From Bacteroidales bacterium (lineage in GTDB: Bacteria > Bacteroidota > Bacteroidia > Bacteroidales > VadinHA17): a DNA stretch of 60,184 bases. The stretch's first letter is position 1, and every line of letters starts with the position of its first letter. The translations under genes were made by a program, and so were the position numbers. Shown in pieces: positions 64-55,646 of the stretch. The DNA lies in assembly GCA_019429325.1 (NCBI GenBank), contig JAHYJA010000001.1, positions 1 through 60,184 of the forward strand, given 5' to 3'. The notes below the pieces were generated by a model. It saw nothing but the letters and a program-made list of their open reading frames with translations. It was not told the DNA's origin and ran no database searches.

Positions 64-1374
64 TCAGAACCTGTAAGACAATCCCGAGAATATGCCGAAT
101 GAATAGGGATGGGTTCTTAAGCCCGGCACGTTTGTGAAAGGATTAAGATAATATCTGAATGTCGGTTCGAGGTTAAAGGATATTCTGTCAGAAAAGTTAT
201 ATTCCATTCCCATTCCGAGGGAGCTGCTTATTGTGAAAGGATTGAGCCCTTCCGTTTTTCCGACTGCAAGCCTGCCGGCATCCGAGGTGGTATAGACTGA
301 ATTGTTTACCAGCAGGTTATAGGATAATCCTCCTATCAGGTTGAAGTCGATGGCTCTGTTCATCAGTTTATATCTGATAATAACCGGCATCTCTATATAG
401 CTGAAGCTTTGCTGCAGTGAGCTGTTCATATAATCAAGCTCCGATTTGACAGGGTCGAACACATCGTTGGTATAGGCAGTGAGTACTCTGTCGGCGCTCC
501 TGTCAATAAGGAACACATCCGAGTTGTTTGTATAGATTGTACCGCTTGACGTGAGTACCCTGAAGTTGGCATCGCCCTTTGTATAATCGTAACGCTGGAA
601 GCCTGCGTATGAGCTTATTCCGGCGACCTCCTGCCCGACTGAGGCATAATAGATACCTGACTGAATGCTAAGTTTTTTACTAAGTCTGTAAGCAAAACCG
701 ACCCCGCCTGAATAAGATACCCGGGTCTGTTCGGATGCCATCAGCTGTTTTGAGAGCTCGTCACCGGAGGCGGCAAATCCGTTATAGTATATAGGGGATG
801 CGAGTGCGGACAATGACCATCTGGGGGACCTCTCCTTTACGTCTTCATAATAGGGATCTGCACCGCGGGTCTCGTCGATTCCCGGGTAACGGATAATACC
901 TGTCCGGTAGAGTGCCGAGACAGGTCCGGGCGGCGAGATCAACTCATTATATGAAAAGTTGTCTGTTGCGGCGGGATATCCGGTCTCGTCCGGGCTTACA
1001 ATGTTTTCTGCAAGTTGAACAGATTCATTTATTACAACCTGCTCCCTCAGGGGAACTGTTTCCATTCTCCTGTTATCCCTGAAAGTCTGGACCGGGGGAG
1101 AAGGATTGCCGGCCATCATCTGATCAGTTAACTCATTAATTGCCGGAAGAAGGTTCTCAGCAGAAACCTGTAATTCCCTGTTGTAGCGGTATACAATTAC
1201 ACTGAGGGATAAAAGCACTGCAATCATCGCGGCAGAGCGGAGAAATAGAAACGGGGCCGCCTTTTTTCTTATCGCCGGCCGGATATTTGCCCAGGCCCCG
1301 ACGGGAGGAAGTACTTCAAGATCCTTCAGGCCGTTCCTGAACAGGAGATCAATATTTGCTCTGCTGTTATCCAT
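64..1374 (-). CDS. Anti-sigma-like membrane protein with a C-terminal outer-membrane beta-barrel-type domain
   Basis: Its start overlaps the stop of the upstream ECF sigma gene by 8 nt. It has a short N-terminal cytoplasmic segment followed by one hydrophobic helix (FLFLRSAAMIAVLLSLSVIVY). The C-terminal ~250 aa show an alternating aromatic/polar beta-strand pattern ending in ...GLSYRF (terminal Phe). Confidence 0.6.
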   Translation of the reverse strand: MDNSRANIDLLFRNGLKDLEVLPPVGAWANIRPAIRKKAAPFLFLRSAAMIAVLLSLSVIVYRYNRELQVSAENLLPAINELTDQMMAGNPSPPVQTFRDNRRMETVPLREQVVINESVQLAENIVSPDETGYPAATDNFSYNELISPPGPVSALYRTGIIRYPGIDETRGADPYYEDVKERSPRWSLSALASPIYYNGFAASGDELSKQLMASEQTRVSYSGGVGFAYRLSKKLSIQSGIYYASVGQEVAGISSYAGFQRYDYTKGDANFRVLTSSGTIYTNNSDVFLIDRSADRVLTAYTNDVFDPVKSELDYMNSSLQQSFSYIEMPVIIRYKLMNRAIDFNLIGGLSYNLLVNNSVYTTSDAGRLAVGKTEGLNPFTISSSLGMGMEYNFSDRISFNLEPTFRYYLNPFTNVPGLRTHPYSFGIFSGLSYRF

Positions 1375-14701: not shown

Positions 14702-15793
14702 TTATTGTGCCTGAGTTTTGGGAACAACGTTTGCAGTAAGCATCAGTACCACTTCGCTGTTTTTGGGATCGTTCGTGTAAACATATATGGCTTTGGTGGT
14801 CTTCCCTTTATAACTGCCCGAATTAAAAACTGCCTTGATAGAGCCAGTCTCGCCTGCCTTTATCGGGGCGTCTTTCACTCCCTGCTGTACTGCAGTACAA
14901 CCGCAGGTCGACCTGATATGCCTGATCTCCAGATCGTTTTTCCCGGTATTGGTGAATTTGAATTCAAACTCTTTTGAAGTTGCATCAGCCATCGTACCCA
15001 GATCGACGGTCTTGGACTCTACGTTGAAGACCGGTGCGTTGGCGAGGTCGTCCTTTGAGAGCTTTGAGAAATCCTCTACGAGGTTTGCTGACACGTAGTA
15101 ATAGATTTTCGGGTCAACAGTGCCGTTTACCTTTACCTTAATCAGATCGCTGACATTTCCCCATCCGTTGTTTTTGGTTGCATCGTAAGTGCCCTCAATA
15201 ATCCCCTTCTGCCCTGGCTTCAGGGTCTCGGGATTGGCTTTCAGCGAGAGATGGGCAGGTACATTATCGAACTCAATCTTTGCAGGGGCATCCGAGGTGT
15301 TAACCACCTGCATCACCCTGATCTTCTTCTCATTCTTTTTAATACTTGTAAAAGCGAGATGATTGCTTTCGAATCTTACTCCTGCGACAGGGAATGTAAA
15401 CAGTTCCTCCATCGTCTTTTCCCTTGGAACTACCTCCCCCTTTATCGTGAGCACTGCCACCTGTGGCTTTGAGTTTGTATAGACCGAAAGGGTCTTGTTA
15501 AAAGCGCCGGGCCGGTTTGCAGGGTCATAAATGGCAGTTATCTTACCCTTCCCGCCGGGAGGGATCGGCGACTTGGTCCACTCAGGCGTTGTGCACCCGC
15601 ACGATGCAACAATATTCTGAATAACCAGAGGTGTATCACCGGTGTTTGTGACCGTGAAATCATAAGTCTGCCTGCCTGCCTCCTCCTTGAATGTTCCGAA
15701 ATTATGATCATTTGATGAAAGTTGCATCCTTGGCTGTCCCCAGGCTGTAATAGCAAAAGATGTGATCAACAAAATAAATAATGCTCTTCTCAT
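14702..15793 (-). CDS. DUF1573 repeat protein (secreted)
   Basis: Signal peptide MRRALFILLITSFAITAWGQ. DUF1573 hallmarks are repeated, with CGC motifs (ASCGCTTPEW, STCGCTAVQQ) in Ig-like ~110-aa modules. The ORF-track start at 15868 is probably too long. Confidence 0.7.
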   Translation of the reverse strand: MRRALFILLITSFAITAWGQPRMQLSSNDHNFGTFKEEAGRQTYDFTVTNTGDTPLVIQNIVASCGCTTPEWTKSPIPPGGKGKITAIYDPANRPGAFNKTLSVYTNSKPQVAVLTIKGEVVPREKTMEELFTFPVAGVRFESNHLAFTSIKKNEKKIRVMQVVNTSDAPAKIEFDNVPAHLSLKANPETLKPGQKGIIEGTYDATKNNGWGNVSDLIKVKVNGTVDPKIYYYVSANLVEDFSKLSKDDLANAPVFNVESKTVDLGTMADATSKEFEFKFTNTGKNDLEIRHIRSTCGCTAVQQGVKDAPIKAGETGSIKAVFNSGSYKGKTTKAIYVYTNDPKNSEVVLMLTANVVPKTQAQ

Positions 15794-38619: not shown

Positions 38620-39206
38620 CGAATGGATTATCGGAAAAGGCCAGGAATGATCTTCTGCTTGTGGAGAAGGCTAAGAACGGAAGTGAGCTTGCATTCGCCA
38701 ACCTGATGAGCCGTTACAGGGATTCCATCTATTTCATGCTCCTGAAAATGGTGAACAACCCGTCTGATGCCGAGGATCTCACGATAGAGGCATTTGGAAA
38801 AGCCTTCCGTAACCTCGAATCCTTCACACCCGAATTTGCATTCAGCACCTGGCTCTTTAAAATAGCCACAAACAATTGCATCGATTTCATCAGAAAAAAA
38901 CAGAGTTCCCCTTCACCGATCGATCAATGGCATGATGATATCGACAACCTCACCATCAACATACAATCTGATCTCCCCGACCCGGAGGAATCGCTTATCA
39001 ATGATCAGAAGATAGCTGTCCTCAGGGGAATAGTCAACCAGCTGAAGCCCCGTTACAGAACCCTTATTGAACTCAGGTACTACAAGGAATATTCCTACGA
39101 AGAGATCTCATCGGAACTTAAACTCCCCATTGGAACGGTTAAAGCGCAGCTCTACAGGGCAAAATCCCTTCTTTACAACATCTTCGTTAAAACAGGCAAC
39201 AGGTAG
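38610..39206 (+). CDS. ECF-type RNA polymerase sigma-70 family factor
   Basis: Region 2 (AEDLTIEAFGKAF, WLFKIATNNCIDFIRKK) and region 4 (YRTLIELRYYKEYSYEEISSELKLPIGTVKAQLYRAK). Its start overlaps the GT2 stop by 10 nt. Confidence 0.85.
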   Translation: MEVTNGLSEKARNDLLLVEKAKNGSELAFANLMSRYRDSIYFMLLKMVNNPSDAEDLTIEAFGKAFRNLESFTPEFAFSTWLFKIATNNCIDFIRKKQSSPSPIDQWHDDIDNLTINIQSDLPDPEESLINDQKIAVLRGIVNQLKPRYRTLIELRYYKEYSYEEISSELKLPIGTVKAQLYRAKSLLYNIFVKTGNR

Positions 39207-39847
39207 TGCCAGAGCGTATCTTCAGATATTTCCCGTCACTTTCAGAAATCCAGGCCGACAGAATCTCGCGCATGATGGAGATCTACCGTGAATGGAACGA
39301 CAGGATCAATGTTATCTCGCGAAAAGACCTTGAAAATTTCTATATTCATCATGTTCTTCATTCACTGTCGGTTGCCAGGATAATCTCCTTCCTGCCATCC
39401 ACGCGTATTCTGGATGTCGGTACAGGAGGGGGCTTCCCCGGCATACCCCTTGCCATACTCTTTCCCGCATCGGAGTTTACCCTTCTCGACTCTGTGGCGA
39501 AAAAGATAAAAGTGGCAGACGCTGTGATCGGCGGGCTTGGTCTGAGTAACGCCTTCACGGCAAGGAGAAGGATTGAAGAGGAAAAAGGAAAATATGATTT
39601 CGTCGTCAGCAGGGCTGTCACCGGCTTTCCCGCCCTGGTGAAGCTGACGGCAGGAAAAATCTCTGACAACAGCAGGAACAGCCTGCAGAATGGCATCATC
39701 TGCCTGAAGGGAGGCTCCATTGAGGATGAGCTTGCTCCTTTCAGAGACAGGGTCAGAATTTGGGACATAAAGGACTTCTTCTCAGAGCCATTCTTTGAAA
39801 CAAAAAAGATTATCTTTCTTCCGTCAGCTAAAGCTGACGGCAATTGA
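39206..39847 (+). CDS. rsmG: 16S rRNA (guanine527-N7)-methyltransferase
   Basis: SAM motif LDVGTGGGFPGIPLAI. Its GTG start overlaps the sigma stop by 1 nt (TAGTG). The last 8 codons plus the stop lie in a repeat element. Confidence 0.85.
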   Translation: MPERIFRYFPSLSEIQADRISRMMEIYREWNDRINVISRKDLENFYIHHVLHSLSVARIISFLPSTRILDVGTGGGFPGIPLAILFPASEFTLLDSVAKKIKVADAVIGGLGLSNAFTARRRIEEEKGKYDFVVSRAVTGFPALVKLTAGKISDNSRNSLQNGIICLKGGSIEDELAPFRDRVRIWDIKDFFSEPFFETKKIIFLPSAKADGN

Positions 39848-39997
39848 ATTTTCCTGAAACAGGACTAAGGTCCCGGACTGAGAAGGAGGGAGCCTCATCT
39901 GTCCGTCAGCTAAAGCTGACGGCAATTGAGCTGCTTCAATTGCCGTTGGCTTTAGCCAACGGATGTGGAAGCTTTTACTGCAGCCGGGCTTTAGCCC
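39821..39997. repeat. REP-like hairpin cluster with a 27-bp direct repeat
   Basis: ccgtcagctaaagctgacggcaattga occurs at 39821-39847 (rsmG 3' end) and again at 39903-39929. Consecutive 8-bp-stem hairpins are CCGTCAGC-TAAA-GCTGACGG (39903-39922), GGCAATTG-N8-CAATTGCC (39921-39944) and CCGTTGGC-TTTA-GCCAACGG (39943-39962), plus GGGC-TTTA-GCCC (39986-39997). Confidence 0.85.
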
Positions 39998-40053
39998 AAT
40001 AAAGCGAAATTCAAAAAAATTATCCCTTCAGCCTCAATTTTCCAAAAAAACAC

Positions 40054-40061
40054 TATATTTG
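40054..40061 (+). promoter_or_regulatory. Bacteroidota -7 promoter box
   Basis: TATATTTG lies 42 nt upstream of the rpmH ATG. Confidence 0.5.
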
Positions 40062-40102
40062 CGGTCTCAAATAAAAACAGCAACAATTAAATAATTATCA
40101 AT

Positions 40103-40258
40103 ATGAAAAGGACATTTCAGCCATCCAGGAGAAAGAGAGTGAACAAGCATGGTTTCAGGGAAAGGATGTCCACCCCTAACGGCAGAAGAGTGATTTCAGC
40201 ACGGAGGGCAAAAGGGAGGAAGAGGCTGACAGTCTCTTCTGAAATGAGGTTAAAATAA
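40103..40258 (+). CDS. rpmH: 50S ribosomal protein L34 (51 aa), not in the ORF track
   Basis: It translates to [51 protein letters not shown], which has the canonical L34 N-terminus and basic composition. Confidence 0.95.
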
Positions 40259-40283
40259 TATTTACCAAGCCTGTAATCCATAA

Positions 40284-40315
40284 AGGGTGTCTGCTGAAAG
40301 GACACCTTTTTTTTT
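40284..40315 (+). terminator. Rho-independent terminator of rpmH
   Basis: The stem AGGGTGTC / GACACCT has a core of 6 Watson-Crick pairs and a 9-nt loop, followed by a run of 9 T. Confidence 0.8.
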
Positions 40316-40324: not shown

Positions 40325-40348
40325 CCTGCATCATTTCATGCGGTTTCA

Positions 40349-41449
40349 ATGAACGGACTGGCCGATTATATTGATAATGAAGCATTGAAGCAGATATCCG
40401 CCAGGATAGATGCCGGTGAGAGGATAACTCCCGCGGAAGGCTTGATGTTATACGAAAAGGCAGGCCTGCCTCTCCTGGGGATGCTGGCCGGAAGAGTCAG
40501 AAGACGGCTTAACGGTAATTCAGCCTTCTTTAACCGTAATTTCCATATCGAACCAACAAACTTATGCATTCACAACTGCCTCTTCTGCTCGTATCAAAAG
40601 AGCGAAGGCGATCCCGGGAGCTGGGATTACGGACACGATGAGATACTCGAAGCATTAAGGCGTTTTGATGAAGAAAAAATTACAGAGGTGCATATTACAG
40701 GAGGAGTACACCCCGGCCACGGTCTGGATTTCTACTGCAAGATGGTCCGTATGATCAAACAACACAGGCCATCACTGCACGTGAAAGCATTTTCCGCAAT
40801 TGAGATCGATCATATGATCAGCAGGGAAAACCTCACAATGGAAGAGGGTCTCCGCAGGCTTGTCGATTGTGGAGTTGACTCCATACCAGGCGGAGGCGCT
40901 GAGATATTTGATGAGAAACTGAGGGAGAAGATTTGCCCGGGAAAAACCTCCTCTGAGAAATGGCTGGAGATTCACGAAACAGCTCATAAGATTGGAATTA
41001 AATCTAATGCCACAATGCTTTACGGGCATTTTGAATCGTACAGCCACCGGATAGACCACATGGAACGGCTCAGGAAGCTCCAGGACAGAACCTCCGGTTT
41101 CAATGCTTTCATACCACTCAGGTTCAGAAACGCGAATAACCGCATGGAGCACCTTGGTGAGGTGAGCGTAACCGAAGACCTGAGAAATTACGCAGTCGCA
41201 AGACTCTTCCTTGATAATATCCCCCACATCAAGGCATACTGGCCGATGACAGGCAGGGAGGTCGCCCAAATGGCACTCTCTTTCGGTGCTGACGATCTCG
41301 ATGGCACAATCGGAGATACTACGAAAATTTACTCCATGGCCGGGGCAGGTGAACAGAATCCCGTCATTACCGTCGAGGAAATAACGAGACTTATCTGCGA
41401 AGCAGGCTACCAGCCGGTAGAGAGAGACTCCGCTTACAACCCGGTCTGA
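40349..41449 (+). CDS. Radical SAM enzyme of the MqnE/MqnC/CofH family (futalosine-route menaquinone biosynthesis type)
   Basis: Radical SAM cluster motif CIHNCLFCSY sits ~55 aa from the N-terminus. ~367 aa, with a C-terminal CofH/MqnC-like region (DDLDGTI). I cannot distinguish the subfamily by eye. Confidence 0.6.
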   Translation: MNGLADYIDNEALKQISARIDAGERITPAEGLMLYEKAGLPLLGMLAGRVRRRLNGNSAFFNRNFHIEPTNLCIHNCLFCSYQKSEGDPGSWDYGHDEILEALRRFDEEKITEVHITGGVHPGHGLDFYCKMVRMIKQHRPSLHVKAFSAIEIDHMISRENLTMEEGLRRLVDCGVDSIPGGGAEIFDEKLREKICPGKTSSEKWLEIHETAHKIGIKSNATMLYGHFESYSHRIDHMERLRKLQDRTSGFNAFIPLRFRNANNRMEHLGEVSVTEDLRNYAVARLFLDNIPHIKAYWPMTGREVAQMALSFGADDLDGTIGDTTKIYSMAGAGEQNPVITVEEITRLICEAGYQPVERDSAYNPV

Positions 41450-55593: not shown

Positions 55594-55646
55594 AGAAAAA
55601 TGTAACACAACCTTTCTGCCGTTGGCTAAAAGCGGAGGACGGGGAG

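Follow-up and report, generated by a model that had tools for sequence, protein, structure and literature searches.

The window analysed here, 60,184 nucleotides (positions 1 to 60,184, forward strand) of contig JAHYJA010000001.1 from a Bacteroidales bacterium (assembly GCA_019429325.1), carries a block of short hairpins between rsmG and rpmH, and it is these hairpins, their relatives in other genomes and a transposase gene associated with them that we describe. From open reading frame (ORF) calls and NCBIfam matches, the gene order at the locus is GT2 glycosyltransferase, extracytoplasmic function (ECF) sigma factor, rsmG, rpmH and mqnE. The rsmG gene, for the 16S rRNA m7G527 methyltransferase, spans 39206–39847 on the plus strand (TIGR00138, 113.9 bits against a cut-off of 99.5), and rpmH, for ribosomal protein L34, spans 40103–40258 on the same strand (TIGR01030, 76.9 bits). 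Bacteroidetes promoters have the −7 consensus TAnnTTTG, and the TAtaTTTG at 40054–40061 (plus strand), in a block (ctatctttgcgatctcaaat) conserved in all relatives and located 3′ of the hairpins, is the probable −7 element of the rpmH promoter.

Hairpin units inserted at the end of rsmG

The preliminary description of this locus had reported a chain of three interlocked hairpins after rsmG, the first and third built on a common frame, and had read their shared flanks as a switch-like arrangement. All three hairpins are present where it placed them and the common frame holds. A repeat search identified them as copies of one 28-nt unit (TCCGTCAGCTAAAGCTGACGGCAATTGA), two direct and one inverted, and the pattern CCGTNNGCTWWAGCNNACGG matches three times in the window compared to 0.00 times expected from 100 shuffles. 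The unit consists of a GC-rich 8-bp stem, a 4-nt TAAA loop and an unpaired CAATTGA tail, each copy containing a perfect 8-4-8 palindrome plus a CAATTG palindrome, and its stem exists as two variants, A (CAGC/GCTG) and B (TTGGC/GCCAA). Read from 39815 to 40005, the layout is the end of rsmG (...ttt ctt), T-CCGTCAGC-TAAA-GCTGACGG-CAATTGA, 54 nt, the 28-mer again, GCTGCT, TCAATTG-CCGTTGGC-TTTA-GCCAACGG-A, 22 nt and GGGC-TTTA-GCCC, followed by a spacer, the rpmH promoter and rpmH.

The first T-CCGTCAGC-TAAA-GCTGACGG-CAATTGA is copy 1 of variant A (39820–39847, plus strand), and copy 2 (39902–39929, plus strand) is 100% identical to it. The linker between them (39848–39901, plus strand) contains a degenerate mini-hairpin, GGAC-TAAG-GTCC (39862–39873), and the word GAGCCTCATC (39890–39899), and is homologous to the 3′ flank of a Y1 transposase gene on another contig of the same assembly (C182), where its counterpart at 40330–40376 reads GGGAC-TAAA-GTCCC...GGGGGGAGCCTCATCAT; the BLAST match reaches 39888. 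Variant B (TCCGTTGGCTAAAGCCAACGGCAATTGA) lies at 39936–39963 on the minus strand, with its tail and that of copy 2 turned towards each other and the 6-nt GCTGCT between them. It is 86% complementary to the 28-mer, with four differences that are compensatory inside the small stem. An accessory mini-hairpin, GGGC-TTTA-GCCC, follows at 39986–39997 (minus strand).

The hairpin that had been described as the middle one, GGCAATTG-N8-CAATTGCC, corresponds to the tails of two units facing each other, so that the interlocked chain, although its hairpins are real, is more simply two small palindromes plus tail pairing within a 62-nt inverted repeat (39902–39963) made of A copy 2 and B. The overlap that had suggested a switch follows directly once a repeat that contains a palindrome is present in two inverted copies, and secondary-structure prediction yields no balanced alternatives: in RNA the long hairpin folds with −41.5 kcal/mol (z −9.2), compared to −13.8 (copy 1) and −14.3 kcal/mol for the small hairpins, and in DNA with −25 kcal/mol (z −8.0), compared to about −9 kcal/mol for each small one (−9 for copy 1). 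The doublet is also the predicted core of a 211-nt RNA fold (−90.9 kcal/mol, z −7.6).

The block interrupts what is otherwise a short spacer. In 19 congeners (same GTDB genus), RsmG ends in ...ETKKIVYLPV-TGA or a near variant, while the rsmG end in the window is ...ETKKIIFLPSAKADGN-TGA, the TIGR00138 match stopping at residue 204 of 213 and the first unit encoding the final eight codons (PSAKADGN) together with the TGA stop. The rsmG–rpmH spacer is 255 nt long here, compared to mostly 90–100 nt (range 63–404) in the 19 congeners, which lack the repeat block in the orthologous spacer, and similarity to their spacers restarts near 40008 ('aaattcaaaaaaa...'); by this comparison, therefore, ~160–180 nt is inserted between the two genes. 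The insert extends over approximately 39824–40005, with an approximate right boundary because the congener spacers are too diverged.

A protein search retrieved four closer RsmG relatives, 81–90% identical and of 213 amino acids, with tails ending in ...PSAEADGN or, in the 81% lineage (P0006), ...PSAEAEGN, the first unit having a TGAA loop. All four contigs (L118–L121) keep the first unit and differ in everything downstream. L118 has only an unrelated CCCTTGGC-TTCA-GCCAAGGG hairpin; L119 has a partial unit, B and the GGGC hairpin, much as in the window; L120 has a B unit and then five 15-nt tail repeats (~1990–2070), each consisting of right arm plus tail (GATGACAGCAATTGA); and L121 has at least three tandem 73-nt modules. 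L118 and L119 encode an identical RsmG protein and still differ in repeat content. From their shared first unit and differing downstream parts, sequence comparison indicates that the first unit has long been a fixed part of the coding sequence, and that the rest of the cluster changes fast. In L118 and L120 the CCCTTGGC-TTCA-GCCAAGGG hairpin, conserved between them, has the family loop and lacks the CAATT tail; it immediately precedes the rpmH promoter, at the position occupied in the window by B and the GGGC hairpin.

A dispersed family and a single-copy Y1 transposase gene

Refutation of the preliminary description had been tied, in part, to the motif being unique to this locus, and a genome search was decisive on this point: the motif recurs. 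Allowing up to five mismatches, we found at least 74 units, ~60 of them well formed, in 19 clusters on 17 contigs of the window's assembly (G000; 3.39 Mb, 263 contigs, 46% G+C). ORFs of 100 or more amino acids contain none of the clusters; two clusters overlap ORF 3′ ends by 20–28 nt. The clusters occupy unrelated spacers, divergent promoter regions included, and no consistent position relative to promoters was found among the 19. Six are at contig ends (the starts of C26 and C81, and the ends of C35, C40, C87 and C182), hence the family breaks the assembly and its true copy number must be higher. The start of C26 resembles the end of C182, and these two contigs may adjoin. A degenerate copy had also been proposed at 55619 of the window; the 12-nt CCGTTGGCTAAA (left arm plus loop of variant B) is shared exactly within 55619–55646, but a second arm is missing, the sequence diverges before running into GTGATTT-type tandem repeats, and it was not recovered at up to five mismatches. 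An exact match of 12 nt being unlikely by chance, this may be at most the relic of a decayed unit. At the same mismatch limit, the family was also absent from the several other spacers of the window that carry tandem arrays.

Within clusters, A and B are nearly always opposite in orientation, as in A+B−A+B−A+B−A+ on C214, and there are tandem arrays of whole or partial units as well. C1 carries at 15429–15540 an array of truncated units with a 28-nt period repeated four times (AAGAACAGCTAAAGCTGACGGCAATTGA); this array and that of L120 suggest that the unit is readily duplicated locally at its tail end. Two kinds of mini-hairpin that share the loops of the units accompany them: GGGAC-TRAA-GTCCC in 11 copies and GGGC-TRAA-GCCC in 23, the latter nearly all within repeat clusters. 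The family is also confined in its distribution among relatives, GCTRAAGCNNACGGYAAYTGA occurring 59 times in G000, 0–3 times in each of 18 congeners and not at all in 12 further genera from the same order; the pattern in reverse, used as a control, gave 0 in all genomes examined.

A Pfam search of the whole assembly for Y1_Tnp gave five genes, one of which is embedded in these repeats. This gene (C182:39898–40347) encodes a 149-amino-acid HUH/Y1 protein (90.2 bits) in which, by alignment with homologues, the HUH motif and the catalytic Tyr/Gln are invariant, with YIRHQVQHH as the Y motif. On its left are A+, B−, B− and the GGGC hairpin, on its right tandem modules of A+, B−, B− and GGGC, and its TAA stop codon is inside the loop of a GGGAC-TAAA-GTCCC hairpin. 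The nearest units are B on the left and A on the right, both with outward-pointing tails. The commonest composite form of the repeats reproduces the left and right ends of this locus minus the gene: seven copies of 135–175 nt each (two on C216 and one each on C35, C22, C1, C30 and C182) have the order TAG-B, GGGC hairpin, GGGAC hairpin, GGGGGAGC.., A-TAG.

The other four Y1 proteins are highly divergent, the three that matched the C182 protein being at most 34% identical to it, and since all five diverge so much from one another, each gene is single-copy. Those at C168:336–926, C14:4810–5340 and C36:15145–15684, also Y1 genes of the Y---Q--HH type, were discarded as cognate candidates as none has a TRAA-loop hairpin within 500 nt; recognisable flanking hairpins are hence not universal in their subclass. 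The fifth gene (C221, ~98–673, minus strand) is of the classical type found in REP-associated tyrosine transposases (RAYTs; REP, repetitive extragenic palindrome), with the Y motif YIKNNP. It too was rejected, its long hairpins (ACGTAGAGGCAGGTC-tga-GACCTGCCTCTACGT, at 66–98 and 223–263) being different and containing GTAG. One of these is at the end of the gene and the other inside the reading frame; they have only local copies in the assembly and resemble the 'REP inserted in tnpA-REP' reported for subclass 2.4.

Conserved loop and tail across genomes

Among the 30 nearest genomes, the closest homologues of the C182 protein are only ~50% identical. In the congener G017 the orthologue is reduced to pseudogene fragments (C217:4445–4687 and C38:5566–5800; the first 64% identical and interrupted by a TAA stop, the second 55% identical), one of which adjoins a unit copy; the lineage thus seems to have lost the system. 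A GTDB scan with an alignment of eight homologues returned at least 595 loci, and the 80 that we fetched are mostly from Bacteroidota (Bacteroidales, Rikenellaceae, Flavobacterium, Cyclobacteriaceae and Chitinophagales), with Acidobacteriota and Calditrichia among the others. Loci whose protein is 63–79% identical share the same A and B units, and the corresponding genomes have 1–33 perfect unit sites over many contigs (27 in G047, 33 in G055), with exactly one orthologue in each of the six checked. A 5.8-kb contig (L025; JBLNAO010000105.1) from a metagenome-assembled genome (MAG) labelled Chloroflexota also carries a 64% identical Y1 gene and the same CCGTTGGC units, from either mis-binning or horizontal transfer.

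More distant loci have other stems (CCTCCAGC, CCACTAGC, CCCCAGCC, GGAATGGGC, GCGTAGCA and more) with the loops unchanged. Loops of TAAA, TGAA, TTTA or TTCA account for 142 of the 193 perfect hairpins (stem of at least 7 bp, 4-nt loop) in the 80 loci and for 82 of 465 in the whole of G000, where 58 of the 82 are the repeat family itself. Such a hairpin occurs within 500 nt of the gene in 63 of the 80 loci. The first hairpin downstream lies at a median of 40 nt past the gene. In 39 of 46 loci its loop, read on the coding strand, is TRAA, and in 31 of 46 that of the last hairpin upstream is TTYA, so that the gene is bracketed by an inverted pair. Tabulated position by position, 108 unique hairpins from the 70 more distant loci have a 5′ flank rich in T, a stem that varies, a T-R-A-A loop that does not, and the tail C-A-A-T-T-(C/G)-A, which is conserved and unpaired. 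Moreover, when sites were picked by 'TRAA-N8-CAAT' alone, with no pairing criterion, arms complementary at seven or more of eight positions were found in 85 of 160, compared to 0–1 sites with paired arms for each of four control patterns.

Nature and origin of the repeats

Taken together, these data make it highly probable that the hairpins between rsmG and rpmH are a REP-like cluster, part of a genome-wide set of non-autonomous mobile DNA with the single-copy Y1 gene on C182 encoding the cognate enzyme. We classify them as a REP/REPIN-like family (REPIN, REP doublet forming a hairpin), that is, a system like REP/RAYT with another class of enzyme and another tag. By analogy with IS608, ISDra2 and E. 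coli TnpA-REP, the transposase would recognise the folded hairpin in single-stranded DNA (ssDNA) through the conserved loop and, as expected of HUH/Y1 enzymes, would cut and join at or near the conserved tail, thereby copying units into intergenic DNA. Clusters would then grow and rearrange by nested or further insertion, slippage and tandem duplication. At the locus in the window, an old insertion would have substituted its own sequence for the final codon and the stop codon of rsmG, to give ...SAKADGN-TGA, and later events would have added the remainder.

The family has the generic attributes of REPs, namely a short (20–40 nt) palindrome and many dispersed, extragenic copies, as well as those of REPINs and bacterial interspersed mosaic elements (BIMEs), namely inverted doublets that fold into long hairpins and clusters of alternating variants. 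It resembles the proteobacterial REP/BIME/REPIN and RAYT systems (Nunvar 2010; Bertels & Rainey 2011, PMC3116915; Ton-Hoang 2012) in its extragenic palindromes with an unpaired conserved tag, in two stem variants that alternate in orientation like the Y and Z REPs of E. coli BIMEs, in a single-copy HUH/Y1 gene with a catalytic Tyr and inverted cognate flanks, and in the co-occurrence of repeat and gene across genomes. It differs from them in its tag, a 3′ CAATT(C/G)A and not a 5′ GTAG, in an invariant T-R-A-A tetraloop, in a Bacteroidales host and in copies that number tens rather than hundreds. The CGTC-tagged REPs (Di Nocera et al. 2013, PMC3733652) are similar in having 8–9-bp stems, 4–5-nt loops, a short unpaired tail, a predominance of head-to-head dimers and an occurrence in Bacteroidetes, and variant A contains CGTC. 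Members of that family, however, carry CGTC unpaired as a terminal tag, have stems beginning with A/T pairs and a CCA tail, and are linked to no transposase. Here CGTC is within the stem (CGTT in B), the tail reads CAATTGA and the units go with a transposase. We rejected membership on the position of the tag, the make-up of the stem and the tail.

The enzyme, by contrast, is not that of a classical RAYT, and this is the first of several points that weigh against a REP/RAYT-like interpretation. The C182 protein scores 28.7 bits with the NCBIfam model REP_Tyr_transpos (NF047646; cut-off 80), and its Y motif does not end in NP as in class 2 RAYTs (Y...NP). Its nearest solved structures are the TnpA proteins of IS608 (E 7e-13) and ISDra2, with no classical RAYT structure among its PDB matches; judged from sequence, it is an IS200-like (class 1, Y---Q--HH) enzyme and not a classical RAYT. 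The link between enzyme and repeats is one of association, from which we infer mobilisation. The ~70 copies are modest next to enterobacteria and pseudomonads, whose REPs number in the hundreds, and since G000 is a fragmented MAG (263 contigs), copy counts are lower bounds and the single-copy status of the gene is provisional. Nine genomes with CTCCAG-type stems have only 1–12 hairpin sites each, so large expansions like that of G000 are the exception and not the rule. Finally, the order in the window (solo A, then the 'right half', GGAC..A, then the 'left half', B..GGGC) is permuted relative to the canonical composite, and secondary rearrangements must be invoked to explain it.

The enzyme's affinities would also suit an ordinary, selfish insertion sequence (IS) of the IS200/IS605 type with miniature inverted-repeat transposable element (MITE) derivatives, as opposed to a domesticated, vertically inherited RAYT/REPIN partnership, and this is the alternative that we take most seriously, even if we think it rather unlikely. 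The protein, at 69.3 bits, exceeds the cut-off (55) of the NCBIfam IS200 model (NF033573) and is closest to IS608 TnpA, and its HUH/Y1 fold, catalytic residues, subterminal recognition hairpins and expected recognition of ssDNA are those of IS608 and ISDra2; the composites are classic internal-deletion derivatives, and the patchy distribution of orthologues in congeners, with the pseudogene of G017, and the copy in the Chloroflexota-labelled MAG both suggest horizontal movement. Yet an IS200/IS605 element is multi-copy and its end hairpins, as in IS608, are direct on one strand, whereas here the gene is single in G000 and in each of the six other genomes checked, the flanking hairpins are mutually inverted as around RAYTs, and the hairpins proliferate alone, solo 28-nt units and tandem arrays far exceeding complete gene-bearing elements. 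This alternative departs from a REP-like origin mainly in evolutionary status and not in mechanism.

That the hairpins are instead a cis-acting RNA device of the rsmG/rpmH transcript, such as a helix switch, a 3′-end stabiliser or a non-canonical terminator, we consider improbable. E. coli REPs stabilise upstream mRNA and attenuate transcription, which provides a precedent, and the block is part of the transcribed 3′ end of rsmG, immediately 5′ of the conserved rpmH promoter, has a very stable predicted RNA fold and has kept its first unit in four sister lineages. This idea is at odds with the absence of the block from the 19 congeners, with the rearrangement of everything downstream of the first unit even between lineages with identical RsmG, with the presence of units in ~19 unrelated spacers and with an ensemble dominated by one long hairpin. 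The preliminary description was right that these are not classical terminators: no T-run follows any hairpin, a terminator scan found no intrinsic terminator in 39800–40100, the sole nearby terminator-like site being rpmH's own (40282–40310), and a terminator and promoter consensus scan of the repeat block gave no match. An Rfam scan at a permissive E-value likewise returned no family at or above its gathering score, the best scores being those of microRNA models (38.5 bits, threshold 100; 26.8 bits, threshold 58), and we dismissed these and an nqrA-II match, also sub-threshold, as generic long-hairpin similarity. The block may nonetheless have acquired a secondary, exapted RNA effect. By analogy with E. 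coli REPs, the hairpin over the stop codon may stabilise the message or stall ribosomes and the block may act as a barrier to 3′ exonucleases; it may also insulate the rpmH promoter from read-through. Any such effect on rsmG or rpmH expression would be a by-product.

Least credible of all is that selection has spread the palindromes because a host protein binds them, be it a regulator or a nucleoid/topology factor, for although each unit has two palindromes, the 8-4-8 one being perfect, and E. coli REP/BIMEs bind integration host factor (IHF), gyrase and DNA polymerase I (Pol I), the units hold no consistent position relative to promoters, are tightly associated with a Y1 transposase and conserve only loop and tail with free stems, which fits a folded single strand and not a duplex operator. 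Two further readings of the 28-nt direct repeat were discarded: a CRISPR-like (clustered regularly interspaced short palindromic repeats) array of 28-nt repeat and 54-nt spacer, given only two copies here, palindromic units, the Y1 gene association and other arrays with periods of 28–56 nt and no unique spacers; and a target-site duplication or att site, given that the same 28-mer is dispersed genome-wide.

Within TnpA-Y1 proteins, the C182 enzyme corresponds to subclass 1.2 (Quentin et al. 2018, PMC6006769), an assignment made by signature only and not by the authors' hidden Markov model (HMM): it shares the Y---Q--HH motif, a length of ~148 amino acids, the WQ motif, low copy number, a Bacteroidetes host and a setting that is not IS-like. 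Subclass 1.2, with hosts in Bacteroidetes or Cyanobacteria, was reported to be without REPs (PMC6006769), in contrast to the TRAA-loop hairpin flanks in 63 of 80 loci and the dispersed families in some genomes described here; we found no literature on the subclass later than Quentin et al. 2018. On balance we lean, by a modest degree, towards the view that the Y---Q--HH clade (subclass 1.2), which is widespread in Bacteroidota and extends to Acidobacteriota and Calditrichia, has its own unrecognised cognate elements, with a variable 8-bp stem, T-R-A-A loop and CAATT(C/G)A tail, inverted around the gene and expanded in REP-like fashion in some lineages. If so, they would constitute a third 'tagged' REP superfamily, IS200-like transposases would have arrived at a RAYT-like lifestyle a second time and independently, and the published statement that subclass 1.2 has no repeats would need to be revised.

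Knowledge of REP/RAYT systems comes almost wholly from Proteobacteria, and the copying mechanism of REPs has yet to be worked out. A recognition element as simple as a tetraloop and tail with a free stem, together with an enzyme close to the well-understood IS608 TnpA, would provide a tractable second model of Y1 transposases that mobilise hairpins in trans. The repeats also break MAG assemblies and create strain-level variation that could be used for typing. At the rsmG–rpmH locus itself, the block is most probably selfish repeat DNA and not a regulatory switch; it has given a housekeeping gene a new C-terminus and stop codon and made a conserved spacer three times as long.

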